A stretch of 27,567 bases of DNA from an uncultured Gemmatimonadales bacterium (GCA_963748815.1 CAVVKJ010000018.1:1-27567); one strand, 5' to 3'; positions 242 to 20,329 are shown, numbered from the stretch's first letter. The notes: generated from the sequence alone by a model not told the origin. Numbers and translations are program-made.

Positions 242-612
242 GTGCATGGCAAGATTTAGCCCGGACCGTCGCAGATTTATCGAGCCCGCTTGCGCGGCCT
301 GCTTTATGCCGCGTAACATCACAACCAAGCGCAGCGCTTGAGGCTTTGTTGTTGTGGCTTGCCAATTGTAATGTTCGGACGCGAGCAGTCCGGGGGAATA
401 TTTGATGTCAGTCTGGCCAAACGCACAAAATCAAAAGAGGCAACGGGCTTCCGGGAGAACCAGGCACTCGTGGCGATCCTTGACCCAGCTCTGGCATCAG
501 CAGTTCATCGACCGGCCCCGGCGATCGCTCCATTGTCGCTTGACGGCGCAGATGTTGTCCTTCACGAACCGCAGCCGTCCAACTTCGGAGCGGGCTGACC
601 GAGGAGCATATC

Positions 613-879
613 ATGACGGAAGAAGCAGTCCGGGAAAAAGTCTGGGCCTTCCTGGCCGAGAGTTTCCTCTACATGCGACCAGACTTCCGAGTCGACCCGG
701 ACGAATCGTTGCTGCGTGCTGGTGTCATCGACTCGCTGGGCGTGATGGAGGTCATTGCGTTCGTGGAGCAATTTGCCGGCATTCAGGTCGCGGACGACGA
801 GATCACCGAGGTCAATTTCGGGACCTTGAACGCGATCGCCGGGTACATCCTATCCAAGATGAACGCCGCCACGACCTAG
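613..879 (+). CDS. Acyl carrier protein (ACP1)
   Basis: 88 aa, acidic, GVIDSLG phosphopantetheine motif; GAGGAG RBS at 601-606. Confidence 0.9.
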   Translation: MTEEAVREKVWAFLAESFLYMRPDFRVDPDESLLRAGVIDSLGVMEVIAFVEQFAGIQVADDEITEVNFGTLNAIAGYILSKMNAATT

Positions 880-963
880 CCTATCCGCCGTCGCGTGGCG
901 GGATGGTCCCGCTGAATCGCCCCCGGAGCATGACACCGATCCCCATCACAGGGGCCGGGGGTA

Positions 964-1593
964 TCAATCCACACCTATCGCCTGGGCGTAGGCTCGTGCC
1001 GACGCCTCGACCGTCGACCCGCCCAAGATACCTCGAATGACCGCCACACCGACTCCGCCCGCCTCGAGAACGGTCGACACGTCGCGAGGGACAACACCGC
1101 CGATAGCCACGCATGGCACCGACGGGGGCGCCCATCGGGCAAGGCCGGCGAACCCTTGGACCTCGAGCGGAGCTCCGGCGTCCGGCTTGGTCGAGGTTCC
1201 ATGCAAGGGACCGATCCCCCAATAGTCCGCGGCCTGCCCCTTTCGCGCTTCCTCGATCGAACCCACCGACACTCCGATGAGGAAGCCCGCCGGCGCGATG
1301 CGGCGTGCCACCGTCAAGGGCACATCGTCCGGGCCGAGATGGACCCCTGCGGCCCCGACGGCGATCGCCACGTCCACTCGATCGTTGAGGAAGAGCGGCA
1401 CGGAGAGCACGGCACCAAGCGCACGCGCCGCCGTCGCGAGTTCCCGCGCGGAGGCGCACTTGAGCCGCAATTGGACCGACGTCACCCCCCCTCGCTCGGC
1501 CGCGAGGCAAAGCGCCACAAGGTCCCGGCCACCGATGAGCGCATCATCAGTCACCAGTACCAGTCTCAGGATTTCCGCTAGATTGTGCGTCAT
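964..1593 (-). CDS. thiE: Thiamine-phosphate synthase
   Basis: Motifs VQLRLK, LFLNDRVD, GVHLGPDD, TSTKPDA, VAIGG and GVAVI. Confidence 0.93.
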   Translation of the reverse strand: MTHNLAEILRLVLVTDDALIGGRDLVALCLAAERGGVTSVQLRLKCASARELATAARALGAVLSVPLFLNDRVDVAIAVGAAGVHLGPDDVPLTVARRIAPAGFLIGVSVGSIEEARKGQAADYWGIGPLHGTSTKPDAGAPLEVQGFAGLARWAPPSVPCVAIGGVVPRDVSTVLEAGGVGVAVIRGILGGSTVEASARAYAQAIGVD

Positions 1594-1626
1594 GACCGAC
1601 CGAACCTACCGAGACGGGGGCTGCTG

Positions 1627-2779
1627 GTGAAGCCCGTGCGTGTGAGCGACCGAGGGGCCGCCCGCTGGACCCGGGGACATCCCTGGATATTCCGCAGCGA
1701 CCTGATGGACGATGTGGAGTCGGCCGGGGTCGTCCCCGTCACCGACCCACGCGGCCGTTTCCTCGGCCAGGCGCTGGCCTCGCCCCACTCCGAAATCCGG
1801 CTCCGCCTCCTCGACCGCACCGAGACACCGATCGACCGCGCCTGGTGGCGCAACCACATCCGCGCGGCCCTATCGCGTCGCGAGGGGATCGACGCCAACG
1901 CCTTCCGCGTGGTGCACGGGGAGGGTGACGGGCTCCCCTCGCTGGTGGTGGACAAGTACGACCGCTGGCTCGTGGCGCAGGTGCTGTCGGCCGGCCTCGA
2001 GACGATGCGGGATGAGATCTCCACCGTGCTACTGGAAATCTTCGAGCCAGAGGGGATCCTGCTGCGAAATGACGTCGCCGTTCGGAAGCAGGAGGGGCTG
2101 CCGGAGGAAATCGTCCTGATGCACGGCACCGTCCCTGCATCGATCGAGATCCGCGAGGGAACCGTACGTTACCTCGCTTCGCCTTGGGAAGGCCAGAAGA
2201 CGGGGGCATTCCTGGACCAGCGCGAGAACCGCCTTCTCGCAGGGCAGCTGGTCCGTCCCGGCGGCACCGCGCTTGACTGTTTTGCCTATCATGGGTCCTT
2301 CGCGCTGCACCTTGCCGGCCGGGCGGGTCGGGTTGCCGCGCTCGACGCCAGCAGAGGGGCGCTGGCACGCGGCACCGAAAACGCCGTCCTGAACGGCATC
2401 GACAACATCGACTGGGTGGAGGGAGACGCCTTCGAGGCGCTCCGTGACTGGGAGCGCGCGGGCCGGCGATTTGACATGGTGGTGGTGGATCCCCCGCCTT
2501 TGCCAAGCATCGGGGCGCGCTGGGGCAGGCGTTGCGTGGTTACGCCGAGATCAACCTGCGGGCAATGCGCATTCTGGCGCCGAGAGGGTCCTCCTGACCG
2601 CCTCGTGCTCGCACCACCTGAGCCGCGCCGATTTTCTCAAGATGCTTTCGAATGCCGCCGCAAACAGCGGCCGCCGATTGACGCTGGAAAGCGTGCTCGG
2701 TCAACCGACAGATCACCCCGAAGTGCTCACCATTGCCGAGACGGGGTACTTGAAAGGAGCCGTGTTACGAGCTGACTAG
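1627..2779 (+). CDS. rlmI: RlmI-family SAM-dependent rRNA m5C methyltransferase (two apparent frameshifts, about 2493 and 2587)
   Basis: GHPWIF, EGDGLPSLVVDKY, GQKTGAFLDQRENR, LDCFAYHGSF. Adding one C at 2491-2495 restores DPPAFAK; adding one G at 2586-2588 restores LLTASCSHH...DHP...ETGYLK. Confidence 0.85.
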
Positions 2780-2809
2780 GCGACGCCGGGCCCTCCGCCG
2801 GCGGTGCCA

Positions 2810-3371
2810 TCAGAGGATGCTGCTGTTGTCGTACTCGCTCATCGCAACGCGCCCAGGATTTCCCATGAAGAGCGCCCGGCTCGGGACGTCACGCGAGACC
2901 ACGGCACCGGCACTGATCGTACTTCGATCCCCCACGGCGCGAGCCCCGACGATCTGCGCGTGTGGACCAATCCAGACACGATCACCAATCGTGGGACCGC
3001 CCTCATCTCCGAATGACTTGATGTGCACAGACTGGTGAATCGAGCAATGACTGCCGATGCGACAGTCCTGCACCACGATATTCCCAAAATGTCCGATGTA
3101 CAAACCAGGGCCAATCTCCGCGGAAAGATCCAGGTGAATGTCGAAGGCCGCCCTGACATAGCCGGTGATCGAGCGAGTAGGCCGCCCAGCCAAAGGGCCG
3201 GAGCAAGGGGAGTCTTTCCGCGTCGCGCAGTAGGGTGAGACGGCGCCCGAGCCGATAGCCCAGCAGTGCCTGCGTCCCCGCCGAAGTGAAGAGCAGGCGA
3301 ACGACTTGGGAGGCGGAGACGTGGGTCGAGTGCAGCATGCGGCAGCAATCCGCGAGAAACGCCGAGGACAT
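2810..3371 (-). CDS. Serine O-acetyltransferase-like (LbH) acyltransferase, apparent frameshift near 3170
   Basis: The N-terminus MSSAFLAD...LGYRLG is in one frame. The C-terminus AEIGPGLYIGHFGNIVV...PTIGDRVWIG...GAVVSRDVP...GNPGR is in another. Confidence 0.8.
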
Positions 3372-3378
3372 GGCGAGG

Positions 3379-4008
3379 TCAACTATCGTCAGCGTCGGGG
3401 AGGGCATAGACAACCTCCCTCGACTGCCGCAGGCGGGTGTTGTCGTACCCTCGTTGGATGATCCGCCCAGGGTTGCCCCGGATGACAGACCGCGGGGGGA
3501 CGCTGTAGGTCAGGTAGGTGCCCGGCAGCAACGTGGCGCCGTCGCCCACCTCCAGATCCCCCGCGATGATGCATCCCGGCCCGATCCACACCTCCCGGCC
3601 AATCCGGGGGCGCTGCACGTTGCCGTCGGCGACACCAAATCCAATGGTGACATGATTATGAATCAACGAACCAGCCCCCACCCTCTCCGCGCCACACATG
3701 AGGTACCCCCCGTCAGGGAGGTAGACCGGGCCTTCAAGTTCGCAATCCCCGAGCATCTCCGACTTGCACCTGATCTTGGCCAGGTAGTAGGCCGGCATTT
3801 CAAGTACCCGGGCGAGCCACCATTTCAGGCTGCCCAGGTTACGACGCGTCGTAGTGAAATATCCGATGCGATGCGCCGTGAGCAACCACAGTCCCCTTGA
3901 CCTGAATGCCGTCAAGAGCACTCGCCAGGATGCAGCATGTTGCCCAAAGGTTGTCAGCCGATGATAGAAGTGCGCATCGGCAGCCACCTGAGCCAATACC
4001 CGGAGCAT
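3379..4008 (-). CDS. Serine O-acetyltransferase-like (LbH) protein
   Basis: HRIGY, HNHVTIG, PRIGREVWIGPG and GNPGR; ATG at 4008 is preceded by GAGAAGG. Confidence 0.8.
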   Translation of the reverse strand: MLRVLAQVAADAHFYHRLTTFGQHAASWRVLLTAFRSRGLWLLTAHRIGYFTTTRRNLGSLKWWLARVLEMPAYYLAKIRCKSEMLGDCELEGPVYLPDGGYLMCGAERVGAGSLIHNHVTIGFGVADGNVQRPRIGREVWIGPGCIIAGDLEVGDGATLLPGTYLTYSVPPRSVIRGNPGRIIQRGYDNTRLRQSREVVYALPDADDS

Positions 4009-4296
4009 AGGGACCTTCTCGTGGCAGGGTGCCAGCCCGGCCAACTCGTGGCGGAATCTCAAGTCCGATGGAGGACAGGCCGTTGGCCAACGCAAGTTCG
4101 ATACCGGTTCACTCCGGCAATGCCGCCTCGGTGGCCCGCCAACCGCAATCTGGATAATACTGGGGTCAAGACCGAGCCGGAAGCAAGGCCGCCCCGGGCC
4201 TTGGAGGAGCTCGAGGCACGTCAGGATGTTTCCCAGAGCAGGGAATAGGGGAGAAATTGCAAGATCGGCGCGATCGTCGCCGCCGTAGGAGGGCCC

Positions 4297-5550
4297 TCAA
4301 CCCCACCCCCATGCCGTGTGGCTACCGAGCAGGTAGGCGTCTTCACCCACTCCGCGATGTCCGCGATGACCTGCGCATCGACCGCCCCCGCCACGCTGTA
4401 CTCCAGGAGCGATCCGGTCCTTCAGGTCGAGGCAGGGCTTCTCGATGACGCGCCAAGAAGCAAGCGCGGCCAGAAACGTCAGAAGGAGGACCAGGAGGAG
4501 GTACAGGGTGAGCCGCGCCAGGCGCCAGGGCGAATCCGTCCCGCGTACCTGATCGCCGAGGAGGGGGGTCAGGAGCTGCTGGATGGGCTGATGGAAGAGG
4601 TACATCGCGTAGCTGTACTTTCCCAGGGTGCGAATGGTTCTCATAGAGAGGAAGGTCTGGAGACGACTTGGAGCACCAGGGCCGTCTTCCACGACGAACG
4701 CGATGAGGACCGCCGAGAGGATCGCGATGAGGCTCTGGCCAATGACCTGGACGGACAACTCAAAGGAGTGAAACCCGCGCTCGACTGCGACAAGTACCGC
4801 CAATCCAGTCCCCGCCAGCACGAACAGTGGGCCCTGCCACCGCATGAGCAGCCTCCTTCCAGTCTCATCGCGCATGAGCAAGGCCACCAGCGCGCCGGCG
4901 GCCAGCGCGTCCCAGCGCGCGACCGTGAGCCCATAGGCAATATTCTGGTCCATTCCCGAGAGGCGCAGCGCCAACCGGATGACTGGGGTCCCAAGCATCG
5001 CGATCAGACAGATGTTGGTGAGCCCCCCCCGTCCAACGTACCAGACGACGAGCGGCCACACGAGGTAAAACTGCTCCTCGACAGCGAGTGACCATGTGTG
5101 CGAAAGTGCGTTGATTCCCGGGGAGGTCGTGACCCAGTTCTGGACATAGACCCAGTACGCCCATCGGTGGCTCTGCCGAATGGCGTCGGCCCACTCCGGG
5201 CTCCAAGCGAGGCGCGGCGCGACGACGATTGTCAAAGCGATCATGGCGTAGTAGAGCGGGAAGATCCGCAGGATTCGACGGACGTAGAACGAATGGAAAT
5301 ACTGTGGCTGGCCCTTCGTGTCGAGAAGGATGCCGGTGATCAGGTACCCGGAGAGCACGAAGAAGACCTGAACGCCGATCCAACCTGTGGCCGCAATCGC
5401 GCTCACGAGCTTCAGGAGGATCTGTTCGCTCTCGCCGGCGATCCATGCAGAGTTATGTATGATCACGACGAGCACTGCCAACCCACGGATACCGTCGAGC
5501 GGCAACTTGCGTTCACTCGACAGAATCGCTGCGTTCGGTACGTCGTTCAC
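4297..5550 (-). CDS. Membrane acyltransferase family 3 (OafA-like)
   Basis: LDGIRGLA, GVQVFFVLSGYLI, FYVRRILRIFPLYY, HTWSLAVEEQFY, LGKYSYAMYLFH and multiple TM segments; GTG at 5550 follows AGGAGG. Confidence 0.9.
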   Translation of the reverse strand: MNDVPNAAILSSERKLPLDGIRGLAVLVVIIHNSAWIAGESEQILLKLVSAIAATGWIGVQVFFVLSGYLITGILLDTKGQPQYFHSFYVRRILRIFPLYYAMIALTIVVAPRLAWSPEWADAIRQSHRWAYWVYVQNWVTTSPGINALSHTWSLAVEEQFYLVWPLVVWYVGRGGLTNICLIAMLGTPVIRLALRLSGMDQNIAYGLTVARWDALAAGALVALLMRDETGRRLLMRWQGPLFVLAGTGLAVLVAVERGFHSFELSVQVIGQSLIAILSAVLIAFVVEDGPGAPSRLQTFLSMRTIRTLGKYSYAMYLFHQPIQQLLTPLLGDQVRGTDSPWRLARLTLYLLLVLLLTFLAALASWRVIEKPCLDLKDRIAPGVQRGGGGRCAGHRGHRGVGEDAYLLGSHTAWGWG

Positions 5551-5793
5551 ATCCCCTCCTGCCGACCATCGCCCGCGGGGTTCGCTCAGCGATGTGGCCC
5601 GTTCATCATCGACACATCCGAGGCGGCAATGCACTCGGGTCGACATTGCGCCCCCGGATTCCAAGGCGAGCCACAAGTTCCACCCCGCGACTCGCCGGAC
5701 CGCGGACCCCCTGGAGCAATGCCGGCCGCCACACAGTCAATGTTGCATGCGCGCCACATAGGGGGTTCTCAGCAGCCTTTTCACAATCGGCGA

Positions 5794-7344
5794 CTACCCT
5801 ACTGGCCGAAGAATGGCTGATCGAATCGACTCAAAGTCGTATTTGCCCGCTGGACCCCTCGGTAGCGTTTCCAGGACCACAATTCGCGCCGGCTGCATGT
5901 ACCGTGGCAATTCACTGGCGGCATACCGCCTTATAGCCAGAACTGACCCCTCAGGCCGAAGCGCCACAACGGCGACGACACGCTGCCCGCGCACCTGATC
6001 AGGCTCTCCCAAGACAACTACATCGGTGACTTGTCCGGAGGCATGGATGACGTCGGCGACCTCGTCGGGGCTGATCCGGTAGCCTAGGGTTTTGATGACG
6101 TGATCTCGGCGACCGACGTAGAAGAGGCGACCGGCCTCGTCGGCTCTGACATAATCCCCTGAGAGGACGACTCGCTCCCCAGCGGGCACCCCAATGCCGG
6201 GTAGCGGCCCGGACCGAAAGACCCGCTCGGTCGACTCGGGGTCATTCCAGTAGCCGAGAGTGACGGTCGGCCCCCGGTGTACCAATTCGCCGACCTCTCC
6301 AGGTTCGCAGACCGTCAGGTCCTCGCGCACCACAAAGACCTGGGACTCCGGAATCGCGCGGCCCATGGAGCCCGGAAAAGCCTCCACTTCCTCCGGCGGC
6401 AGGAAGGTACTGCGAAAGACCTCGCTCAGGCCGTACATCAAGAAGAGTTTGGCTTGCGGCTGGACCTTTCTCAGGGCCAAGACAGCCTCCGGGGGGAGCC
6501 GACCGCCCGCACAGGTTATTGTTCTCAGCCTTGAAAGTGGAGCCTCCGTGAACGCAGGGGCCTGGAGCAGCTGCAGCCAAAGCGGTGGCACGGCGGCCAG
6601 CACCGTGACACAGTTCTTCCTAAGCGAGACGGAGAGGTCCTGTGCCAGCCCAGACCGCTCGACGACCAGGGTAGCCCCAGCGACCAGGCAGCACGTGAGT
6701 TGGTTGAAGCCGTAGACGAACCCGAATGGCAGCACACTGGCGATTCTATCGTCGGACCGAATGCCGAGGTATTCCGCCACGATCCTGGCACCGGCCCACA
6801 AATTGCCGTGACTGACCAAGACCCCTTTCGGCTGACCGGTCGATCCCGATGTGTAGACGAGCTGGGCAGGGTCAGCCGGAAGTCGCTCTATCGGAGTGCT
6901 GGGCGCCAGATCACGGATATCTGTGGGGGTGAGCCGCACGCCAGTGAATTCGATCTCACGGGTCAGGTTCCGCACCATGTCGGGATCGGTTATCAGGAAC
7001 TCGGACCCCGAATGAGCCAGAATGTGCTCGACCTGACGGGCCACGTAGAGTTCGTTGACCAACACCGCGATGCCGCCCGCACCGGTGACACCGAAGAAGG
7101 CGGCGGCAACCTCAGGGCCTCGCCCAAGAAAGATTCCGACCCTGTCCCCGGGCCGCAGCCCAGCCCGGAGCAGGAAGGACGTATAAACCGCCGAGCGGGC
7201 GGAAAGTTCTGCAAAACTCGTGGTTTCGCCATCATCCACGATGGCTGGCCGCTGACCGAAGGATCGGCCGGCATGGCCCAGAAGCCAGGCAATATTGGCT
7301 TGAGAGAGTTCTTCGATTGAATCAAAGGTGGTGGGGGGAACCAT
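5794..7344 (-). CDS. AMP-dependent acyl-CoA/acyl-ACP ligase, resembling the exosortase/EPS-associated subfamily
   Basis: YTSGSTGQPKG, MYGLSEVFRSTFLPPEEV, GELVHRGPTV, SGD, GRRD, GYRISP and the terminal GK. Confidence 0.9.
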   Translation of the reverse strand: MVPPTTFDSIEELSQANIAWLLGHAGRSFGQRPAIVDDGETTSFAELSARSAVYTSFLLRAGLRPGDRVGIFLGRGPEVAAAFFGVTGAGGIAVLVNELYVARQVEHILAHSGSEFLITDPDMVRNLTREIEFTGVRLTPTDIRDLAPSTPIERLPADPAQLVYTSGSTGQPKGVLVSHGNLWAGARIVAEYLGIRSDDRIASVLPFGFVYGFNQLTCCLVAGATLVVERSGLAQDLSVSLRKNCVTVLAAVPPLWLQLLQAPAFTEAPLSRLRTITCAGGRLPPEAVLALRKVQPQAKLFLMYGLSEVFRSTFLPPEEVEAFPGSMGRAIPESQVFVVREDLTVCEPGEVGELVHRGPTVTLGYWNDPESTERVFRSGPLPGIGVPAGERVVLSGDYVRADEAGRLFYVGRRDHVIKTLGYRISPDEVADVIHASGQVTDVVVLGEPDQVRGQRVVAVVALRPEGSVLAIRRYAASELPRYMQPARIVVLETLPRGPAGKYDFESIRSAILRPVG

Positions 7345-7415
7345 GATCCCTCAACTAGGTCGACGCACCGTGATGGCGACCCCGGCAAGAGCGCCGGAAC
7401 GAATGGAACGAGCCT

Positions 7416-8426
7416 GTGACGATGCCTGCAATTAACACACCATCGAATGCTGCGTTTCGTGACCCGGCGCTGCTGACGGATCAAATCGCCGACAGGCTGC
7501 GATCATTGCTCACATCGCGCCTCAACCGCCGAGGTTTTGTGGTGGCGATGAGCAGCGGCGTGGATAGCAGCGTCTGCGCGGGTCTGGCCGTACGCGCCGT
7601 CGGCCCCGAGCGGGTCTTCGGCCTCTTCCTTCCGGAGCGGGACAGCGACCCCCAGAGCCTCGAGATCGCCAAGGAGTGGGCCGACTCGCTCGGAATCCAG
7701 AGCCTGGCCGAGGATATCGCCCCTATCCTCGAAGCCGCAGGGTGCTACCACCGGCGGGACGAGGCGATCCGGCGCGCGGTCCCGGAGTACGGGCCGGGCT
7801 GGCGATGTAAGTTGTCCATTCCGGGAGGGGCAAAGCCAGGGGCGATCAACGTGACCCAACTGGTCGTCCAACCTCCGGATGGCCCGGCACGCCAGGTGAG
7901 ACTCACCGCCACCGACTACCGGCAGATCGTCGCCGCAACGAATTTCAAGCAACGGGTCCGCAAGATGCTCGAGTACTACCACGCAGACCGCCTGCACTAC
8001 GCGGTTGTCGGTACGCCCAACCGTCTGGAATTCGACCAGGGGTTCTTTGTGAAGGGTGGAGACGGATTGGCCGACCTCAAGCCGATCGCCCACCTCTACA
8101 AGACCGAAGTCTATGGCGTCGCCGAGCATCTCGGTGTGCCTCGGGCCGTGACCGACCGGCCTCCAACAACGGACACATTTTCGCTCCCCCAGACGCAGGA
8201 GGAGTTCTACTTCTCGGCTCCCGCCAAGATTCTGGACCTTGTGCTGCGAGCGAAAAACGCGGGGCGTCCGGCGGACGAAGCGGCCGCCGAACTCCGCCTC
8301 CAACCGGCGTTGGTGGAGGCATTGTACCACGACATCGATCAGAAGCGGCGGACCACAGCTTACCTCCACCTCACCTCGCTGCTGGTCGAAGAAGTCCCCG
8401 TCCCACTCGGTCGGCAACCCGACTGA
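7416..8426 (+). CDS. nadE: NH3-dependent NAD synthetase-like protein (NadE family, cluster-associated variant)
   Basis: PP-loop SSGVDSS, NFKQRVRK, GTPNRLE, GFFVKGGDG, KPIAHLYKTEV and PPTTD. The start may be ATG 7422. Confidence 0.85.
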   Translation: MTMPAINTPSNAAFRDPALLTDQIADRLRSLLTSRLNRRGFVVAMSSGVDSSVCAGLAVRAVGPERVFGLFLPERDSDPQSLEIAKEWADSLGIQSLAEDIAPILEAAGCYHRRDEAIRRAVPEYGPGWRCKLSIPGGAKPGAINVTQLVVQPPDGPARQVRLTATDYRQIVAATNFKQRVRKMLEYYHADRLHYAVVGTPNRLEFDQGFFVKGGDGLADLKPIAHLYKTEVYGVAEHLGVPRAVTDRPPTTDTFSLPQTQEEFYFSAPAKILDLVLRAKNAGRPADEAAAELRLQPALVEALYHDIDQKRRTTAYLHLTSLLVEEVPVPLGRQPD

Positions 8427-10404
8427 TGTGTGGCATCGCCGGAGTCGCGCGGGGGCAACCTGTAGGCGCCCCGCTCGAAATGCTCGGCCGCATGGCGGGC
8501 GCAATCCGTCATCGGGGCCCGGATGGCTACGGCTTCTTCACCAGCCCGCTGGTGGGGCTGGCCCACGTCCGCCTGAGCATCATAGACCTGGCCGGCGGTG
8601 CCCAACCGATGACGAACGAGGATGGCAGCGTCGTCATCAGTTATAACGGCGAGGTCTACAATTATCTGGAGCTTATGGCCGATTTGCAGTCACGCGGCCA
8701 TCATTTTCGCACAACTTCCGATACTGAAGTCCTCGTGCATGGGTGGGAAGAGTGGGGCCCGGGCTCTTCCAGCGGCTGAACGGGCAATTTGCCTTCGCAC
8801 TCTATGACCGACGGACGGAAGAACTCGTGCTCGCACGCGACCGATTCGGCGTCCGGCCTCTGTTCTACGCTGAACGGGCGGGGGACCTCTACTTCGGATC
8901 CGAAGTCAAAGCGCTGCTTGCCTCGGGGGAGGTCTCGCCCGAACCAGATCCGATCGGGCTCGATCAGGTCTTCACGTTTTGGGCTGCCCGCCCCCCACGT
9001 TCACCGTTCCGCGATGTCTGGCAGCTGGAACCCGGAACGTGGGCCCAATGGAGTCGTGGAAGGCTCAAAATTGAGCGGTACTACGCCCTCGACTATCCCG
9101 AGCAAGCCGAAGAACGCCCTGACGCCATTCACGCGCTGGATGAGCTACTGCACAACAGTGTCGCCTTGCGACTCCGGGCCGATGTGCCGGTCGGGGCCTA
9201 CCTCAGCGGCGGACTCGATTCCAGCATTACCTCAGCGCTGGCCGGCAAGGAGTCTCCGTTCTCACTGAGAACTTTCTCGATCACTTTCCAGGATCCACGG
9301 TACGACGAAAGTGAGTTCCAGCAGGCGGTGGCCGGCACGGTGGGCTCCCTCCACACGGTGCGTCACATAACGGACTCCGACATCGCGGATGCACTTCCCT
9401 CGGTGGTCCGGCATGTCGAGACCCCCCTCCTCCGAACGGCCGCAGTCCCGATGTATCACCTTGCACGGGCGACCAGAGAGGCGGGGATTTCGGTTGTCCT
9501 CACCGGTGAGGGGGCGGACGAGCTCTTTCTTGGTTACGATCTCTTCAAGGAAGTTGCGATCCGCCTGTTCTGCCTCAGCCAACCCGAGTCCGCATCGCGC
9601 CCTCGCTTGTTCGACCGGCTCTATCCATACCTCGCATCACCCGGCGGCTCAAAGGGCGGCGAGATGTGGCAGCGGTCGTTCCTTGGCGCAGGGGAACCGG
9701 GCGATCCGCTCTTCTCTCACCTGCCCCGCTTCCGGACCGCCGGATGGCTCCGTGAGTTCTACAGCGACCAGATGATCGAACAGACCGGTCAACATGATGC
9801 CTTGGACGAGTTGCGAGGTGCGCTGCCGCCCGCGTTTAGGGGCTGGGCACCGCTGAATCAGGCAGCCTATCTGGAGATGGTCACGCTCCTGTCGCCGTAT
9901 CTTCTGAGCAGCCAAGCGGACCGAGTCGGTATGGCACATGCCGTGGAGGGACGATATCCGTTTCTCGATCACCGCCTATTCGAATTCGCGGCCGCGCTTC
10001 CGACAAAGTCCCGCTTGCTCGGGCTCCGCGAAAAACGCATCCTCCGCCGCTGGGCGCGCGACCTGCTTCCCACAGCTGTGCTGCGCCGCACCAAACAACC
10101 TTACCGCGCTCCAGATGCGCCGCCGTTTCTCGCCCCGTCGGCTCCCCCGTGGGTCGAAGCCGAACTGTCGCGCGAATCGGTCGTTCGAGCCGGGATCTTT
10201 GCTCCTGGAGCGGTCTCTGGTCTCGTCCGGCGGTGCCGGAAGGGGGAGGCGGCAGGGATTCGCGAGCATCAGGCCCTTGTAGGCGTTGTATCATCCCAGC
10301 TCTGGCACCGAGAATTTATCCAGAGTTTCCGCTTACCACCGGCTCTCAGCGTTGCAGGCGCCGACGTGATCCTCCAATCAGAACTCGCGGGTAGCAGCGC
10401 ATGA
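8426..10404 (+). CDS. asnB: Asparagine synthase (glutamine-hydrolysing)-like amidotransferase, apparent frameshift near 8762
   Basis: MCGIAG, HRGPD, RLSIIDL, YNGEVYN and SDTEV. After one added G it continues LNGQFAF, ARDRFGVRPL, LSGGLDSS, LTGEGADE and EGRYPFLD. The start overlaps the nadE stop (TGATG). Confidence 0.9.
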
Positions 10405-10589
10405 GAGTTCCGCATCACCGGGTTGGTGGGGTTGCGGGGCAGCGTCGGGCGAGTGCTGTCGTTCAAGTGCCGGGACCAGCGAGTGCGGCGCTTCGGGCGT
10501 CCACACTAGATTCTTTGTAGCTTGGGCTGATCGTATTTCCCCGCCACCCGGCGGGTGGTGCGTTCGACCTCACTCCGGAAAACGAGACT

Positions 10590-10856
10590 ATGACCGAGAA
10601 CGAAATCCTGAGCTCTGTGCGCGCCTTCCTGCAGGAGAACTTCCTGTATATGAAACCGGATTACGTCCTATCCAACGACGACTCATTGCTCAAGAAGGGC
10701 ATTGTCGACTCCATGGGTGTCTTGGAAGTCCTGAGCTTTCTTGACGACTCATTCGGAGTAACGCCCAGCAACGACGAAGTCACGGAGGCCAACCTCGGAA
10801 CACCGAACGCCATCGCCCGATTCGTGGCGGCAAAGCGTTCGGCGAACTTGGGCTAG
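10590..10856 (+). CDS. Acyl carrier protein (ACP2)
   Basis: 88 aa, GIVDSMG motif; ungapped paralog of ACP1. Confidence 0.9.
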   Translation: MTENEILSSVRAFLQENFLYMKPDYVLSNDDSLLKKGIVDSMGVLEVLSFLDDSFGVTPSNDEVTEANLGTPNAIARFVAAKRSANLG

Positions 10857-10880
10857 TCCGGTGTCCGACTCGGATCGAGG

Positions 10881-11642
10881 ATGCCAGTCGTGACCGAGGC
10901 CCCCATCGCCAAGGCGGCACCTCAGGAAGGCCGGGGCTCGATGATGGGCCGCCTGCGTCATCGGCTTGTGACGTCCCAGCATCCAGTGGCGCTCACCCTC
11001 AAAGTCACTCGGCGCCGCCTGCTCCGCATCGGGATCGCGCTCCCGCCGGCGGCGTTCCGCCCCTTTTTGTGGTGCTTCCTAGCCGTCCGGGGCCTCTGGT
11101 TTGGGATTTATCGCATTTTCGTCTGTGAGCCGCTCTTTCGGGCCTACTGCACCACCGTCGGGCGCGGATTTCGTACTGGGGTGTTCGTGCACTGGGTCCA
11201 GGGATCCGGTCGGATCATCGTCGGGAGCGACGTGACCCTCGACGGACGGTCCTCCTTCGCATTTGGCTCCTCCTTTAGCGAGGCGCCAACGCTCAGCATC
11301 GGAGACGGGACCACGATCGGGCACGGGTGCAGCTTCGCGGTCGGGAAAAGCATCACGATCGGCCGGCACTGCCTCATTGCCCAAGGCGTTTCGATGCTCG
11401 ATTCGAGCGGGCATCCCCTCGACCCGGCCAAGCGACTGGCCGGCGCACCCCCTGATATCGAGGATGTCAAGCCAATTGTTGTCGGCGACAACGTGTGGAT
11501 CGGTGATCAGGCCAAGATCATGCCGGGCGTGACAATCGGCGATGGGGCCGTTGTGGCGGCCGGTTCGGTAGTTGGAGGAAGCGTACCCCCAAACGTCTTA
11601 GTGGCTGGGTATCCTGCCCGGAAGATTCGTGACGTCACCTGA
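10881..11642 (+). CDS. Hexapeptide-repeat (LbH) sugar O-acyltransferase, maltose/galactoside acetyltransferase-like
   Basis: ITIGRHCLIA, DSSGHP, PIVVGDNVWIG, PGVTIGDGAVVAAGSVV and VAGYPAR. Confidence 0.88.
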   Translation: MPVVTEAPIAKAAPQEGRGSMMGRLRHRLVTSQHPVALTLKVTRRRLLRIGIALPPAAFRPFLWCFLAVRGLWFGIYRIFVCEPLFRAYCTTVGRGFRTGVFVHWVQGSGRIIVGSDVTLDGRSSFAFGSSFSEAPTLSIGDGTTIGHGCSFAVGKSITIGRHCLIAQGVSMLDSSGHPLDPAKRLAGAPPDIEDVKPIVVGDNVWIGDQAKIMPGVTIGDGAVVAAGSVVGGSVPPNVLVAGYPARKIRDVT

Positions 11643-11711
11643 CCAAACAGGCCTCCGCCTGAAGCCCAGTCGCTTCCCGGAATCAGTGGTGGTCAAATCG
11701 AGGATCGACCC

Positions 11712-12560
11712 ATGTCCGCAACCCCATTCCTCCCCCAAGCCCTGGTGTGCGCCGCGATCTTGTGCGCGTGCACGGAGTCACCCGTGAGTTATCCATCCAG
11801 TGAGGTAGCTACGAGACTTGCCACTGTGACCCCGTCGCAATGGGCGGCCCTCGGGTCACGCCGAGTGTTCTTTGCCCACCAATCGGTTGGCGGCAACGTC
11901 ACCGAGGGACTAGATCGGGTGTTGCGGGACTACCCCGCGATCCCGGTTCGCCTGGTACGGAGCAGTCAACCGGACACCGTGCCGGGAGGAGCGATTTTCC
12001 ATAATTTTGTAGGCGACAATGGTCAACCATCCAGCAAGACGGAGGACTTCACTGCTATCGTACTCTCGACACAACACAATCCGATCGAGATCGGGATGCA
12101 GAAGTTCTGCTATGCAGACTTCAATCGACACACGGACGTCGACGCTGTCTTTGCGACGTACGAGCAACGCATCGAGGACCTGCGAGTGCTGCGACCAAAC
12201 CTACAGATCGTTCACCTGACGACACCGTTGCTGGAAGAACGCTTTTCAGTGAAGGACATTGCTCGCGCCGCGTTGGGGCGGACCACTACAAAGGAGCAAC
12301 TCGATCAGGTTCGCCGGTACAACGCGCGATTGCGGGCACGGTACTCGGGCGTGGACCCCATCTTTGACCTGGCGGCGATTCAGGCGCTGGGCGACCGCGG
12401 CGACCACGGCGACCAGAACGGCAGCCACGAGAATGAGAGTTTGACACCACGGTTCGCAACTGAGGATGGAGGACACCTCAACCCGGTCGGACAAGAGGTG
12501 GTTGCTGCAGAATTCCTCGTCTTTCTCGCGAACCTCTCGCCCAAGGAAGTTCCCGAGTAG
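11712..12560 (+). CDS. Putative lipoprotein with SGNH-hydrolase-like motifs
   Basis: Signal peptide ending LCAC; FFAHQSVG (block I-like Ser) and a C-terminal DGGHLN (DxxH). Confidence 0.65.
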   Translation: MSATPFLPQALVCAAILCACTESPVSYPSSEVATRLATVTPSQWAALGSRRVFFAHQSVGGNVTEGLDRVLRDYPAIPVRLVRSSQPDTVPGGAIFHNFVGDNGQPSSKTEDFTAIVLSTQHNPIEIGMQKFCYADFNRHTDVDAVFATYEQRIEDLRVLRPNLQIVHLTTPLLEERFSVKDIARAALGRTTTKEQLDQVRRYNARLRARYSGVDPIFDLAAIQALGDRGDHGDQNGSHENESLTPRFATEDGGHLNPVGQEVVAAEFLVFLANLSPKEVPE

Positions 12561-12625
12561 GCAATTCCGCGCCTGCCCGGGTTCGTTGGACCGAAAGCGA
12601 CGCTGTGCCTGTGACCGCCCGGGGT

Positions 12626-13291
12626 TCACTGGCGACCAGCCTCCTGGGGAGTCTCCTCCTTCTCCCGCCTCCACTCCAGGTACGAATACACCACCGGCCA
12701 GAGCACCATCCCGAAGACCGCCACCAGCATGGCGGTCGTGGAGTTCCGGCCCATCGGAATGAACGCTGTGGCAACGAATACCAGCCCGGCGATCGTAAAT
12801 GCGTAGCCGCCAATTCGGTGCGTCTTCCGCCACACCCGCTCGCTGCTCAGCGTCCACGGCGTCCGGATGCCCATGAACCAGTTCGGCCGGATCCGGGGCA
12901 GCAGGTTCCCCATGAAGACGAACAGCGCGCCGAGGAGGATCGGAAGCACCGACCGCATGTCGAACGGCCAGCCCAGAGCTGATCCGAGAATCAGGACCTG
13001 GACGATACCGACGAAGCCGATGATCACGTTGACCAGCAGGAAGTACACCGACCCATGGAACTCATAGTTCTTCTTGAGGGGGTCGATGTTCGGGAGGGCG
13101 GCGAAGATCAGCGTCATCAGCGCCATGACGGCCGGCATGAGGAACGCCGCGAAGGCCGGGGACGACCACCCGTTGGGCTGGCCGTTGACGCCCCAGTGCG
13201 TCGCAACCCGTTCCGGGAGTTGCGGCCAGGCCCACCACGAGAAGGCCAGTGTCGCGAGGGTGACGAGAATGGCGGGCATCAGCTTACGCAT
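12626..13291 (-). CDS. sdpI: SdpI family membrane immunity protein (DUF1648 + SdpI)
   Basis: LPERVATHWGVNGQPNGW, PNWFMGIRTPWTLSSERVWRKTHR and about six TM segments. Confidence 0.88.
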   Translation of the reverse strand: MRKLMPAILVTLATLAFSWWAWPQLPERVATHWGVNGQPNGWSSPAFAAFLMPAVMALMTLIFAALPNIDPLKKNYEFHGSVYFLLVNVIIGFVGIVQVLILGSALGWPFDMRSVLPILLGALFVFMGNLLPRIRPNWFMGIRTPWTLSSERVWRKTHRIGGYAFTIAGLVFVATAFIPMGRNSTTAMLVAVFGMVLWPVVYSYLEWRREKEETPQEAGRQ

Positions 13292-13565
13292 TGCGGCGCT
13301 CCTTGCGGCGAGGGGCGATTTCGAGCAGGTGCTGCAGGGCATCCTGCACCACCGTGGTGTTGAGGGAGTACCGGATGAACTGGCCGTCCCGGGTGGCGAG
13401 CACCAGCCCGGCTTCCTTCAGCACCGAGAGATGGTGCGACACCGACGCCCACGCCACCGGAAATTGCGCGGCAATCTCGCCGGCAGGGAGGTCCCCGTCC
13501 CGCAGCATGGCGAGAATGGCCCGGCGGGTCGGGTCGGCGAGCGCCTTGAAGGTCTGGTCGATCAC
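13284..13565 (-). CDS. sdpR: ArsR-family autorepressor, SdpR-like
   Basis: FKALADPTRRAIL, AGEIA, SHHLSVLKEAGLV and YSLNTTV; overlaps the sdpI start. Confidence 0.88.
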   Translation of the reverse strand: MIDQTFKALADPTRRAILAMLRDGDLPAGEIAAQFPVAWASVSHHLSVLKEAGLVLATRDGQFIRYSLNTTVVQDALQHLLEIAPRRKERRNA

Positions 13566-13603: not shown

Positions 13604-13751
13604 AACCCCTCACCGCCTTCCCTCTCCCTCCGGGAAAGCGGGGGATGCCAGCGTTGCGGATCGTCATCCCGACGCAAGTCGGGATTCCCGCTTTCTCGGG
13701 CCAATGGACCCGGCGACCCTGCCCCGGCGAAAGCCGGGGGCCGGGGCGACA
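13604..13751. repeat. Cluster of REP-like palindromes
   Basis: CCCCTCACC...CCTCTCCC..GGGAAAGCGGGG (13604-13645), GTCATCCCGACGCAAGTCGGGATTCC (13663-13688) and TGGACCCGG...CCCCGGCGAAAGCCGGGG...CCGGGGCGAC (13705-13751). Confidence 0.7.
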
Positions 13752-13772
13752 GCGACTCGACCTCCGCCCTCC

Positions 13773-13828
13773 GCCCCGCTGCCCCGCTGCCCCGCTGCCC
13801 GCCTGCCTCGCTGCCTTGCCCTGCCTCC
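13773..13828. repeat. 8-bp tandem repeat (GCCCCGCT x3 plus degenerate copies)
   Basis: Directly visible in the sequence. Confidence 0.8.
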
Positions 13829-13850
13829 CCAGCCGTACGACTTTTCTCCC

Positions 13851-14729
13851 ATGCCCCGCCCCGATTCCGCCGTCGAGGAACGCACCCGCCTGGTGCGGCG
13901 CGTTCTGCTGGGCGTCCTCCTCGCCAACCTGGCGGTGGTCGCCGTCAAGTTCCTGGTGGGTTTCGGAATCGGCTCGCTCGCCGTGGTCGGTGACGCGGTG
14001 CACTCCTCGGTCGATGCGATCAACAACCTCTTCGGGCTGGCCGTGGTGCGTTTCGCCTCGAAGGGGCCCGACGCCGAGCACCCCTACGGCCACGCCAAGT
14101 TCGAGAGTCTCGGCGCGCTCCTGATCGTCGTCTTCCTCTCCCTCTCCGTGTTCGAGCTGCTGCGCGGCGCCTGGGCCCGCCTCGTGGAGGGCGCCCCCGC
14201 GCTCGTCATCAGCCCCGTGCAGGTCATCCTCCTCCTCTTCACCCTGCTCATCAATCTCTGGGTCGTCTGGTACGAGACCCGGGCCGGCCGCCGGCTGAAG
14301 AGTCCGATCCTCCTCGCCGACGCCTCCCACACCCGCGTCGACGTGTTCATCACGATCGCCGTCCTCGGCGGGCTGTACCTGACCCATCTCGGCTACCCGA
14401 TCGCCGATCCCATCCTGGCCATCGTCGTCGCGTTCCTCGTGGTGCGGGTGGGCTGGGAAATCGTCGGGCACTCGCTCCCGACGCTGGTGGACGGCGCCGC
14501 GGTGGACGAGCCCTCGATCCGGGTGGCGGCCGAGGCAGTGGATGGGGTGCGCTCGGCGTATGCCATCCGTTCCCGCACGGCGGCGGCGCTTTCCTTCGCG
14601 GAGGTGACGATTGCGGTCGACGGCGCTCAGAACGTGACCGCGGCGCACGAGATCGCCGACGCGGTCGAGGACAAGCTGCGCGACGACCTCGGCTTCAACC
14701 ACGTCCAGGTGCACGTCGAGCCATGCTGA
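13851..14729 (+). CDS. Cation diffusion facilitator (CDF/FieF-like) metal efflux transporter
   Basis: SLAVVGDAVHSSVD, PDAEHPYGHAKFE, LLADASHTRVD, AHEIAD and VHVEP. Confidence 0.92.
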   Translation: MPRPDSAVEERTRLVRRVLLGVLLANLAVVAVKFLVGFGIGSLAVVGDAVHSSVDAINNLFGLAVVRFASKGPDAEHPYGHAKFESLGALLIVVFLSLSVFELLRGAWARLVEGAPALVISPVQVILLLFTLLINLWVVWYETRAGRRLKSPILLADASHTRVDVFITIAVLGGLYLTHLGYPIADPILAIVVAFLVVRVGWEIVGHSLPTLVDGAAVDEPSIRVAAEAVDGVRSAYAIRSRTAAALSFAEVTIAVDGAQNVTAAHEIADAVEDKLRDDLGFNHVQVHVEPC

Positions 14730-17392: not shown

Positions 17393-20329
17393 ATGCCTTC
17401 GCTGACAGTCAACGGACAATCCGTGCCGATCGCCGAGGGCGATACCATCCTCGATGCGGCACGCGCGCACGGCGTGGAGATTCCCACCCTCTGCTGGTAC
17501 CCGAAGCTCCCCACCGTCGGGAACTGCCGCATCTGCCTCGTTTCCGTCGAGGGACAGAACAAGCTGCTGCCCGCCTGCGCCACGCCGGCCGCCGATGGCA
17601 TGGTGGTCGAGACCGAGAGCGCGGCCGCCGCCGACAACCGCCGCGGCGTGCTCGGCATGCTGCTCGAGCGCTACCCGTTGGAGCACCTGCGCGGGAACGG
17701 CAGCGCGCCCCCGCCGCGCAACGAGTTCGAAGGGTACGTGAAGCAGTACCAGGTGCCGATTCCCACCGACCAACCCCTCGGCCTCCGCGGCGGCGACACC
17801 CGCCCCGGTGACGTCATGATCCAGCACGATATGTCGCTCTGCATCCTCTGCACCCGCTGTGTCCGCGCCTGCGACGACATCCAGGAAGTCGGCGTCCTCG
17901 ATGTCGGCCAGCGCGGCCCGCACACCGAGATCATCGTCGGCGGCGACGGCGACCCCGACCACGCCGGCTGCACCTGGTGCGGCGAGTGCGTCCGGGTCTG
18001 TCCCACCGGCGCCATCTTCGAGGTGATTCCCCGCGAGCGATTCGGGGCGGAGGCGGTTCGCCATCCCGACACCGTCACCCGGTCGGTCTGCCCCTATTGC
18101 GGCGTCGGATGCCAGGTGGATCTCCACGTGAAGGACGGGGAGCTGGTGCGCGTCACGTCGCCCTGGATCGAGGAGAACACGCCGAACCAGGGCAGCACCT
18201 GCGTGAAGGGTCGGTTCGGCACCGACTACGCGCAGCATCGCGACCGGCTCACTGTCCCGCTGATCCGGAAGGGTTGGGTCCAGGAGGGAACGACCTGGCG
18301 CTGGACGGGCGAGACGCCGAGACGCCGGGAGGGACCGTGGCAGACCATCGAGGAGATTGGCGGCGGCAGGAAGCCGCGCCCCCCGAAGCGCAGCGTCGGG
18401 AAGCCGCCCCAGACCGGCCTGCCGATCGTGGGCGACGGCGACGTGCGCGACAGGGCGACCACCCCGGCCGAATGGTACGACGCCTTCCGTGAGGCCACCT
18501 GGGAGGAGGCGATGAGCCTCACCGCCCAGGAACTTCTCCGCATCAAGACCCAGCACGGCCCCCGCGCCCTCGCCGCGCTCTCCTCCGCCAAGTGCAGCAA
18601 CGAGGACAACTACCTCTTCATGCGGATGGTGCGCGGCGCCCTCGGCACCAACAGCGTGGATCACTGCACCCGCCTCTGCCACTCGACCTCGGTGTCCGCC
18701 ATGAGCCGCGCCCTGAGCACCTCGGCGGCGTCAGGCTCGATGCGGGAAATCGAGGAGGCGTGCGACGTCATCTTCATCTCCGGCGCCAACGTCACCGAGA
18801 ACCACCCGGTCTTCGGGGCACTCATCAAGCGGGCCGTGACCCGGGGCGCCAAGCTGGTGGTGGCCGACGTGCGGCGCACCGAACTCGCCGCCCTGGCCGA
18901 TGTGCACCTGCAGCTCCTTCCCGGCACCGACGTGGCGCTCTACAGCACCATGCTCAATCACATCCTGGGCAAGGGCCTCGAGAACAAGGAGTTCATTCGC
19001 ACCCGCACGAAGGAGTTCGAGCAGGTGCGGGCCGCCGTGGCGCCCTACACGCTCGATGTCGGGCAGAAGCTCACCGGCGTGCCGGCCGCCCTGATCGCGC
19101 GGGCTGCCGAACTCTATGCAAGCGGACCGAACACCTCCACGCTCTGGGCCATGGGACTGACCCAGCACGCCACCGGCACCGACATCGTGGCGAGCCTGCT
19201 GAACCTGCTGCTGGCGTGCGGGATGATCGGCCGCTGGGGCGCGGCGATGCTGCCGATCCGCGGCCAGAACAACGTGCAGGGGGCCAGCGACGTCGGCGCG
19301 ATTCCCTTCGCCTACACCGACTACCGCTCCGTCACCAATCCGGAGAACCGGGCCGACTACGCCAGGGCGTGGGGACTCCCCGAGGAGGCGCTCTCCCTCG
19401 AAAACGGCCTGATGGTGACGGAAATGACCAAGTCCGACAGCGGGGTTCGTGGCCTGTATATCATGGGAGAGAATCCCGTCATTTCCGACCCCGACGTGGC
19501 GCACGCGGAAGAATGGGTGCGCGGGCTCGAGTTTCTCGGTGTGCAGGACCTCTTTCTGACCGACACCGCGCGGTGGGCCGACGTGGTCCTGCCCGGATCC
19601 TCCTTCGCGGAGAAGGAGGGGACGTTCGCCAACACTGAGCGGCGTATCCAGCTCTCCTCTCCCGCCCTGGCGCCCCCCGGCCAGGCCCGGCGCGACCTCG
19701 ATATCCTGATCGACTTGACCGAGCGCCTGGGTCTCAAGAGCGAGTACGCCGGTGCCGAAGCGGTGATGAAGGAGATCGCGTCGGTGACACCCTCCTGGGC
19801 CGGCCTCACCTACGAGGGCCTGCGCCAGCACAACTTCGGCCTCCAATATCCGGTGCTGACGCCCGACTCCGACGGCACCGCGTTTCTCTTCGAGGACAAG
19901 TTCCCGACACCCGATGGCCGGGCGCTCTTCGTGCCGGTGGAGTTCCTCCCGCCCAACGAACTGCCCGATGCCGAGTACCCGTTCGTGATGGGCACCGGCC
20001 GGCAGATGTACCACTGGCACACGGGGACCATGACCCGCCGCTCGACTGGCCTGGACTCTCGTGAACCCGTGCCGACGGTGGAAATGCATCCGGAAGACGT
20101 GGCAGCACTCGGCGTGACCGACGGCGAGACCGTCCGCATCACCTCACGCCGCGGGAGCATCCTGATCGGCGTGCGCGCGTCAGGCCGGCAGGCCCGCGGC
20201 CAGGTGTTCGTGCCCATGCACTACCGCGAGGCGGCGGCCAACCTGCTGACCAATCCGGCGCTGGATCCGTATGCGAAGATTGCAAGCTTCAAGGTGAGTG
20301 CGGTGAGAATTGAGAGGACTGGGGACTGA
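17393..20329 (+). CDS. fdhF: Formate dehydrogenase alpha subunit (Mo/W-bisPGD, Cys-type, N-terminal 2Fe-2S and 2x4Fe-4S)
   Basis: IPTLC, CRICLV, CILCTRCVRAC, CTWCGECVRVCP, CPYCGVGC, CVKG, NSVDHCTRLCH, RGQNNVQG and HWHTGTMTRR. Confidence 0.92.
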   Translation: MPSLTVNGQSVPIAEGDTILDAARAHGVEIPTLCWYPKLPTVGNCRICLVSVEGQNKLLPACATPAADGMVVETESAAAADNRRGVLGMLLERYPLEHLRGNGSAPPPRNEFEGYVKQYQVPIPTDQPLGLRGGDTRPGDVMIQHDMSLCILCTRCVRACDDIQEVGVLDVGQRGPHTEIIVGGDGDPDHAGCTWCGECVRVCPTGAIFEVIPRERFGAEAVRHPDTVTRSVCPYCGVGCQVDLHVKDGELVRVTSPWIEENTPNQGSTCVKGRFGTDYAQHRDRLTVPLIRKGWVQEGTTWRWTGETPRRREGPWQTIEEIGGGRKPRPPKRSVGKPPQTGLPIVGDGDVRDRATTPAEWYDAFREATWEEAMSLTAQELLRIKTQHGPRALAALSSAKCSNEDNYLFMRMVRGALGTNSVDHCTRLCHSTSVSAMSRALSTSAASGSMREIEEACDVIFISGANVTENHPVFGALIKRAVTRGAKLVVADVRRTELAALADVHLQLLPGTDVALYSTMLNHILGKGLENKEFIRTRTKEFEQVRAAVAPYTLDVGQKLTGVPAALIARAAELYASGPNTSTLWAMGLTQHATGTDIVASLLNLLLACGMIGRWGAAMLPIRGQNNVQGASDVGAIPFAYTDYRSVTNPENRADYARAWGLPEEALSLENGLMVTEMTKSDSGVRGLYIMGENPVISDPDVAHAEEWVRGLEFLGVQDLFLTDTARWADVVLPGSSFAEKEGTFANTERRIQLSSPALAPPGQARRDLDILIDLTERLGLKSEYAGAEAVMKEIASVTPSWAGLTYEGLRQHNFGLQYPVLTPDSDGTAFLFEDKFPTPDGRALFVPVEFLPPNELPDAEYPFVMGTGRQMYHWHTGTMTRRSTGLDSREPVPTVEMHPEDVAALGVTDGETVRITSRRGSILIGVRASGRQARGQVFVPMHYREAAANLLTNPALDPYAKIASFKVSAVRIERTGD

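Follow-up and report, generated by a model that had tools for sequence, protein, structure and literature searches.

The 27,567-nucleotide (nt) stretch analysed here, called the window, is the entire contig C18 of an 86% complete genome (G000) from an uncultured Gemmatimonadales bacterium (GCA_963748815.1 CAVVKJ010000018.1:1-27567). Between positions 613 and 12,560 a first-pass annotation of the sequence had placed a single candidate pathway dependent on acyl carrier proteins (ACPs), which would build an amidated acyl group and transfer it to a surface polymer. It listed two ACPs, an adenylating ligase, NadE-like and AsnB-like amide-forming enzymes, three LbH acyltransferases, a membrane AT3 and an SGNH-like lipoprotein, which we call HQSVG. 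All these genes are present (Table 1). Ketosynthase and condensation domains are indeed absent, as neither family matched in the 26 open reading frames (ORFs) scanned, and the proposed translational coupling of nadE and asnB is visible as a TGATG stop/start overlap at 8426. The reading of two ACPs and three LbH proteins as one pathway has to be abandoned: the span is a mosaic of two cassettes. The ligase, NadE-like, AsnB, ACP2, LbH_c and HQSVG genes together make up one conserved cassette (cassette B). It is widespread and likely decorates a slime polysaccharide with an amidated small-acid group built on a carrier protein.

Table 1. Genes and features of the window, with positions counted from its first base.
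Feature	Position	Strand	Remarks
asnB 3' stub	440-598	+	C-terminal remnant of cassette A asnB; remnant region including ACP1 is 438..879
ACP1	613-879	+	tail of a second, paralogous cassette (A)
thiE	964-1593	-	ordinary backbone gene inside the span first annotated
rlmI	1627-2775	+	ordinary backbone gene inside the span first annotated
LbH_a (CysE/EpsC-like)	2810-3382	-	G001/G003-type backbone, cassette A side
LbH_b (CysE/EpsC-like)	3379-4095	-	G001/G003-type backbone, cassette A side
AT3	4297-~5550	-	AT3-only membrane acyltransferase; PF01757, 83.4 bits (cut-off 31); left edge of inserted block
Adenylating ligase, cassette B	5794-7344	-	VinN/TIGR03098-related
NadE-like PP-loop amide-forming enzyme, cassette B	7416-8426	+	NF002048, 454 bits (cut-off 313)
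AsnB-like glutamine amidotransferase, cassette B	8426-10404	+	frameshift near 8758-8767
ACP2, cassette B carrier	10590-10856	+	phosphopantetheine site Ser41
LbH_c hexapeptide-repeat acyltransferase, cassette B	10881-11642	+	candidate cytoplasmic transferase
HQSVG protein	11712-12560	+	SGNH fold; S58/D252/H255; lipobox Cys20
Second-start region in HQSVG	11769-11786	+	Cys codon 11769-11771, GGAG 11774-11777, in-frame GTG 11784-11786
SdpI/SdpR-like pair	12626-13565		ordinary backbone
CDF transporter	13704-14729		ordinary backbone
Formate dehydrogenase alpha	17393-20329		ordinary backbone
tdh-kbl	20381-22620		ordinary backbone

We class the span as a two-cassette mosaic because window 438-4383 matches a related genome, G001, in which ACP1 ends cassette A. 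The match is 95% identical, and 100% for the ACP1 protein. Cassette A has in G001 the order methyltransferase-HQSVG-ligase-nadE-asnB-ACP and is followed by thiE, rlmI and both LbH genes. A 951-nt contig of run X1, which derives from a relative, shows 8 differences over window 438-908 and continues into the asnB of cassette A. The cassette B block (4384-12,650) is arranged as in another relative, G009, with AT3, ligase, nadE, asnB, one ACP, one LbH and HQSVG; its GC content is 62-63%, against 67-68% in the flanking DNA. Window 4297-4383 marks, in the alignments, the recombination edge of the inserted block, and here the AT3 frame extends into sequence shared with the 3' end of the gene occupying this place in G001. 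The genes thiE and rlmI sit between ACP1 and the remaining genes of the span, and ligase and nadE are transcribed divergently. Two ACPs were found in a single one of 80 HQSVG loci, and that locus also has two cassettes. On the cassette A side, LbH_b has no His where LbH_a has one (position judged by eye) and is possibly the non-catalytic partner of the LbH pair.

These HQSVG loci are the best 80 of 582, weighted to close relatives, with HQSVG re-called in 78. They come from Gemmatimonadota, Thermodesulfobacteriota, Nitrospirota, Acidobacteriota, Myxococcota, Chloroflexota, Pseudomonadota, and other phyla. At least one core gene occurs in 53 of the 80. By gene, the counts are 45 for ACP, 43 for ligase, 42 for LbH, 40 for AsnB, 31 for NadE-like, 10 for WbuX-like and 17 for exosortase. 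A polysaccharide or exosortase gene is found in 49, so the neighbourhood check bears out the earlier expectation that the core co-occurs with HQSVG and often with such genes. Where each flank reaches 5 kb or more (44 loci), they are 26 for ACP, 25 for ligase, 25 for LbH and 4 for AT3. In 37 of 78 loci HQSVG has an LbH or GNAT gene no more than two genes away, and in 2 an AT3 gene. HQSVG, GNAT and Wzx genes form a tight block in four loci, and Azospirillum (A. thermophilum, L114) has the core plus a GNAT gene within a glycan locus. In the cultured Citreicoccus inhibens (L086), HQSVG occurs with LbH, ACP, AsnB, ligase and NadE genes; Oscillochloris trichoides (L101) is a further cultured carrier. 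A second sample, 251 genomes of the phylum anchored on the NadE-like gene, contained this gene in 13; HQSVG is present in 7 of them, always within 3.5 kb of it. The NadE-like gene is linked to carrier genes wherever the flank sufficed, and asnB usually adjoins the ACP gene.

The ligase has its best NCBIfam match in the exosortase-A-associated model TIGR03098, the comparison suggested by the first-pass annotation, and scores 484.4 bits, under the cut-off of 592. Among PDB entries, VinN is the top match for the pocket region of one ligase of the family (E 1e-45) and the tenth for the window protein. In the VinN pocket, Asp230 binds the amine, and Ser299 and Arg331 bind the carboxyl (PMC7756342; PMC12186527). 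With VinN numbering placed from the printed alignment and mapped onto the window ligase, V210/A279/F310/R311 stand where VinN has D230/S299/K330/R331: the equivalents of Asp230 and Ser299 are absent and that of Arg331 is retained. Because the amine-binding Asp is replaced by Val while the carboxylate-binding Arg is kept, the predicted and likely substrate loaded onto ACP2 is an amine-free diacid. An amino acid, which had also been considered, is unlikely given Val210 at the position of Asp230. The Asp is kept in the ligases of cassette A and of Sinorhizobium meliloti. A PrmC-like methyltransferase accompanies 9 of 18 Asp-type ligase rows versus 0 of 26 non-Asp rows, a contrast that is inflated by kin. 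In a quick tree, scored only by the Shimodaira-Hasegawa-like approximate likelihood ratio test (SH-aLRT), built with three rows from two loci left out and used for grouping only, the window ligase clusters with that of G009 (SH-aLRT 100) and separately from those of cassette A. Three loci (L042, L068, L105) pair an Asp-type ligase with a non-Asp one next to a single ACP. Profiles for ornithine-lipid (OlsH/I) and cispentacin ACPs scored far under cut-off, and an ornithine-lipid route, which we also considered, was dropped.

The PP-loop and most NadE motifs are retained in the NadE-like protein, which has ~60 extra residues inserted and comes without a glutaminase domain; a separate glutamine-dependent NadE is encoded on contig C6. 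NCBIfam names the two amide-forming enzymes NAD(+) synthase and asparagine synthase, with scores above cut-off. Among 39 loci with ACP and ligase, related genomes counted, 28 have the NadE-like gene, 9 a WbuX-like gene and only 1 both, which suggests that the two enzymes do one interchangeable job. AsnB has both the glutaminase domain with its N-terminal Cys and the synthetase domain, split by the loss of one base at ~8758-8767, where three relatives carry one base more; the closest ortholog, in G009, is a single intact ORF of 670 aa. This frameshift is likely an assembly error, because rlmI shows similar losses (two single bases, both in homopolymer runs) and C18 differs from its counterpart on contig C10 by 11 single-base gaps in 6,948 nt. 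The carrier serine, Ser41 in ACP2, is invariant in 50 of 50 aligned carriers. Against the DltC-type model NF003464, the two ACPs of the window score 23.7 and 24.5 bits (cut-off 68). DdaH offers an analogy for the amidation of a tethered diacid. The AsnB-like OxyD has likewise been proposed to amidate a small diacid, yielding a malonamate starter (PMC6164072).

HQSVG has no Pfam or NCBIfam match, and its profile gave one weak match among PDB sequences (E 0.35). We found 320 homologs and aligned 115, in all of which H56, S58, G60, N103, K109, K131, C133, D136, D252 and H255 are invariant. The predicted model, with a mean local confidence (pLDDT) of 91.8, is that of an SGNH-fold protein, with the Block I Ser (S58) and the Block V DxxH (D252/H255). 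G101 is conserved in 104 of the 115 sequences beside the invariant N103, and a K-x-C-x-x-D motif without Asn follows strand 127-130. Foldseek ranked PatB first (E 7e-7). VIA-align ranked esterases first (Z 15.1-14.0; at Z 15.1 the root-mean-square deviation is 3.1 over 174 aligned residues), with PatB at Z 12.6; DltD, AlgJ and AlgX are not among the fold matches listed, which does not exclude them. The distinction between SGNH transferases and esterases is treated in PMC9487903. A lipobox is present in 62 of 85 HQSVG loci, so the SGNH-like lipoprotein first proposed stands in both fold and lipobox, with an extracytoplasmic location predicted. We found no paper on the HQSVG family or the cassette in a literature search that left out most subscription journals.

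A second candidate start follows the lipobox of HQSVG. An ATG or GTG codon occurs at +4 to +7 after the lipobox Cys in 37 of 51 distinct lipobox N-termini, in 25 of them exactly at +5; as controls, other proteins of G000 with a lipobox-like motif gave 14 of 149, none of these at +5, and those within the 80 HQSVG loci gave 0 of 19. Codon choice is skewed in the same region: Gly at +1 to +3 is encoded by GGA in 38 of 65 cases (11.7 expected) and Val at +4 to +7 by GTG in 11 of 13 (5.5 expected). Anti-Shine-Dalgarno pairing exceeds the mean of the synonymous null in 33 of 37 sequences, individually with p ≤0.1 in 9. Because a conserved in-frame ATG or GTG with a Shine-Dalgarno-like signal follows the lipobox, HQSVG is predicted to make a cytoplasmic isoform besides the exported lipoprotein. 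The conservation of this putative internal start across phyla is a new observation of this analysis. N-terminal proteoforms with differing localisation are mostly known from single organisms or from predictions (PMC13515050). A complex prediction for the short form of HQSVG with ACP2 scored 0.00 (mark 0.32) and is counted neither way.

The AT3 protein is 75% identical to the copy in G004 and 58% to that in G009. Its FFVLSG fits the FFx(I/L)SG motif, and in its first helix the protein (4411-5550, minus strand) reads R-X9-H-N, not R/K-X10-H, as in 52 of 98 clade members. One genome, G033, carries four R-X9-H-N AT3 genes in 13 kb. Of the 80 HQSVG loci, 5 matched a broad AT3 profile, two being kin from the same genus, and 2 an MBOAT query. 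Within the genus, 5 of 16 genomes have an ortholog of this AT3; the cassettes of G001 and G013 come without it, and G008 carries it without the NadE-like gene. Since AT3 is rare in HQSVG loci and present or absent independently in relatives, it is, as far as gene neighbourhoods tell, an accessory and frequent neighbour of carrier cassettes, no fixed part of this one. The dedicated membrane step assigned to it at first is not supported: the 5 of 80 loci compare with 37 of 78 for LbH or GNAT near HQSVG. The AT3 of G008 flanks a different carrier system (PRK07080/07081), whose genes are also found in G003. We collected 99 AT3-clade loci; among the 44 of at least 10 kb, a carrier cassette is present in 12 and a glycan gene in 20, and 11 of the 12 carrier neighbourhoods, duplicates included, are of the PRK07080/07081 type. 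This second system comprises a SerRS-like amino acid-ACP ligase (PRK07080), an ACP (PRK07081), an acyl-CoA dehydrogenase, DUF1839, AcpS and hydrolase 1/2; it often flanks the AT3 clade and sometimes a NadE cassette (L110, L111, L017, L119, L126, and others).

The core itself was already known but uncharacterised; new here are the SGNH fold of HQSVG and its conserved internal start. The S. meliloti core of NadE, ligase, ACP and AsnB (SMb20649-SMb20652), named in the first-pass annotation, is confirmed as four linked genes. This pSymB operon, asnB-smb20651(ACP)-smb20650(ligase)-nadE1, has the same four genes as cassette B, with identities to the window of ~55% for NadE (NadE1), 49-55% for AsnB, 38% for ACP and 35% for the ligase. 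In vivo, SMb20651 is acylated by SMb20650, which does not stand in for FadD (PMC7232532). The two differ in that the S. meliloti genes form one operon whereas those of the window form two divergent units, and in that the S. meliloti ligase keeps the full VinN-type pocket (Asp, Lys-Arg) where the window has Val and Phe-Arg. The annotation within 10 kb of the operon includes no SGNH, LbH, AT3 or glycan gene, and the product of the operon is not named in the accessible literature searched. The Dlt (DltA/C/B/X/D) and PatAB/AlgIJ MBOAT-SGNH systems resemble the cassette in having an adenylating enzyme, a carrier and an extracytoplasmic SGNH protein. They differ from it in several respects: the membrane protein of the window is a PF01757 AT3 with no MBOAT (DltB), the carriers are not DltC-type by score, the ligase is without the amine-binding Asp, and the window adds two amide-forming enzymes, LbH and an SGNH gene with a predicted cytoplasmic isoform. 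Dlt systems also have an acyl-shuttle Tyr hexapeptide in DltX (PMC12148441). The cassette is partly Dlt-like on the cytoplasmic side (adenylation, carrier), yet falls outside Dlt.

Other likenesses concern single components. The stand-alone beta-amino-acid adenylation systems VinN/VinL, BolO/BolC and AfcQ have a ligase of the same family, with the Arg for the distal carboxylate likewise conserved; here the equivalents of Asp230, Ser299 and Lys330 are changed, neither a pyridoxal phosphate-dependent decarboxylase nor a polyketide synthase (PKS) accompanies the ligase, and the context is one of glycan genes. The exosortase-A-associated set (ligase TIGR03098, amidotransferase TIGR03108, hydrolases TIGR03100/03101) shares the best NCBIfam match of the ligase and the exosortase genes of 17 of 80 HQSVG loci, but the window scores under both cut-offs; an exosortase profile search of G000, at its 86% completeness, gave no match. 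OxyD-type amidation likewise combines an AsnB-like enzyme with a tethered small diacid, with the difference that no PKS or nonribosomal peptide synthetase follows here.

From the genes present, their conservation, the pocket residues, the HQSVG fold and the signal for a second start we infer a route to which we give about an even chance (roughly 50%). The ligase would use Arg311 to hold a small dicarboxylic acid that has no amine and resembles succinate, malate or malonate, and would load it onto ACP2; AsnB would amidate the free carboxyl of the carrier-tethered acid, as proposed for the malonamate starter of OxyD. The NadE-like enzyme would make a second amide or an amidine on a nucleotide sugar, with ammonia from AsnB. 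The acyl group would then go to a sugar in the repeat unit of a Wzy-type polysaccharide while that unit still faces the cytoplasm, before it is flipped; the transferase would be LbH_c, or a GNAT in some loci, possibly together with the cytoplasmic isoform of the SGNH protein. Outside, the lipoprotein isoform might edit the product by trimming or relocating the acyl group, and AT3 would be an optional extra decorator. The acceptor locus is likely a Wzc/Wzx/Wzy cluster on contig C12, which overlaps the right end of the window and has Wzc-like, priming transferase, deacetylase, Wzx, two GT4 and Wzy-like genes.

Several observations weigh against this route, whose mechanism is a proposal with predicted activity and product. 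The candidate acceptor locus is distant, by 15 kb or more, and sits in an assembly of mixed strains. In 27 of the 80 HQSVG loci, many on short contigs, there is no core gene, and 6 of the 13 NadE-like cassettes of the phylum lack HQSVG. The four S. meliloti genes stand alone among unrelated genes, and of 116 plasmid records with a NadE-like gene none matches HQSVG. The NadE-like protein retains most NAD-synthetase motifs, related genomes enter the counts behind the NadE/WbuX and methyltransferase patterns, and the second-start signal of the window taken alone is not significant (synonymous-recoding p 0.32). If the AsnB frameshift is real, this copy of the cassette is dead. Finally, an AT3 gene within ~10 kb of 5 of the 13 phylum cassettes (some on short contigs), and a carrier cassette nearby in 12 of the 44 long AT3-clade loci, speak for the earlier view of AT3.

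That earlier view is a Dlt-like logic with AT3 in place of MBOAT, in which AT3 would carry the acyl group of acyl-ACP through the membrane, for the SGNH lipoprotein to attach to the glycan. Besides these counts, it could draw on the adjacency of AT3 and ligase in the window and in G009 (in G267, too, an AT3 adjoins the ligase, though an unrelated one), on PatB as top Foldseek match of HQSVG, and on the AT3-to-SGNH transfer known in the fused OatA (PMC12148441). We nevertheless consider it unlikely: AT3 falls to 4 of 44 HQSVG loci when both flanks are long enough, the cassettes of G001 and G013 do without it while G008 has it with no NadE-like gene, almost all of its carrier neighbourhoods belong to the PRK07080/07081 system, esterases fit the HQSVG fold as well as PatB does, and its first helix departs from R/K-X10-H. 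Cytoplasmic carrier-dependent acylation is preferred over this relay because AT3 is rare, and LbH or GNAT common, near HQSVG. The rarity of membrane acyltransferases, with a lipobox and an internal start both conserved across phyla, would also suit a two-sided SGNH relay that needs neither AT3 nor MBOAT: the cytoplasmic isoform would pass the group from ACP to a lipid carrier, a flippase would turn it over, and the lipoprotein isoform would hand it to the polymer. The HQSVG-GNAT-Wzx blocks fit such a relay, and the invariant H56, K109, K131 and C133 could bind an acidic partner. However, its lipid carrier is only hypothetical, LbH or GNAT already provides a cytoplasmic transferase, and both in rhizobia and in nearly half of the phylum cassettes the core does without HQSVG, which makes the relay improbable. 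A related form, in which the cytoplasmic isoform would unload the amidated diacid from the carrier and the lipoprotein install it outside, again with no MBOAT or AT3, appears quite unlikely.

Amidation might also be independent of the carrier, with AsnB and the NadE-like enzyme acting on nucleotide sugars (giving a uronamide or amidine) and ligase, ACP and LbH adding a plain acyl group. The alternation of the NadE-like enzyme with a WbuX-like N-acetyl sugar amidotransferase (TIGR03573, 164-172 bits, cut-off 203) points this way, as do other AsnB paralogs in polysaccharide loci with no adjacent ACP (PMC9012009). We find it doubtful, given that asnB usually lies beside the ACP gene and that the linkage of the four genes holds even in places with no sugar genes nearby. 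The system could, lastly, be unrelated to glycans or dead, that is, ordinary NAD and Asn synthetases plus lipid or small-molecule acylation, or a pseudogenised copy. The NCBIfam calls, the S. meliloti context and the frameshifted AsnB would agree with this, but the cell has its glutamine-dependent NadE on C6, the NadE-like gene is patchy (13 of 251) and carrier-linked, and single-base gaps are common in this assembly; we regard it as very unlikely. Relatives of the S. meliloti operon are often found in polysaccharide loci across many phyla. By ligase pocket, the cassettes fall into an amino-diacid and an amine-free class, and the methyltransferase occurs only in the former. The exchange of the NadE-like enzyme for a sugar amidotransferase gives a further handle on the cassette. 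An SGNH family without a Pfam model has a cross-phyla candidate second start directly after the lipobox and, if true, this family-wide, pathway-linked case of dual-localisation proteoforms would be a clean model.

The closest relatives of the window by its proteins are Gemmatimonadota records, and the G000 assembly is a mix of two strains or species. The first 437 bases of the window (57% GC), which join mid-asnB at 438, have no match in the rest of G000 or in 40 relatives; they are probably a chimeric contig start or reflect a real deletion of cassette A. A promoter and terminator scan gave no signal above chance. At the other end, the last 3.1 kb of the window overlap the end of C12 at 98% identity. 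The backbone has a second copy on C10 (1,158,548-1,181,636), 80-96% identical and without the block at ~2,780-12,650. The larger C10 region around it (1,145,000-1,183,366; L001, L002) carries other inserts, including AsnB/lasso-cyclase-like genes, and an additional TIGR03108-like amidotransferase lies at the end of the C10 contig.

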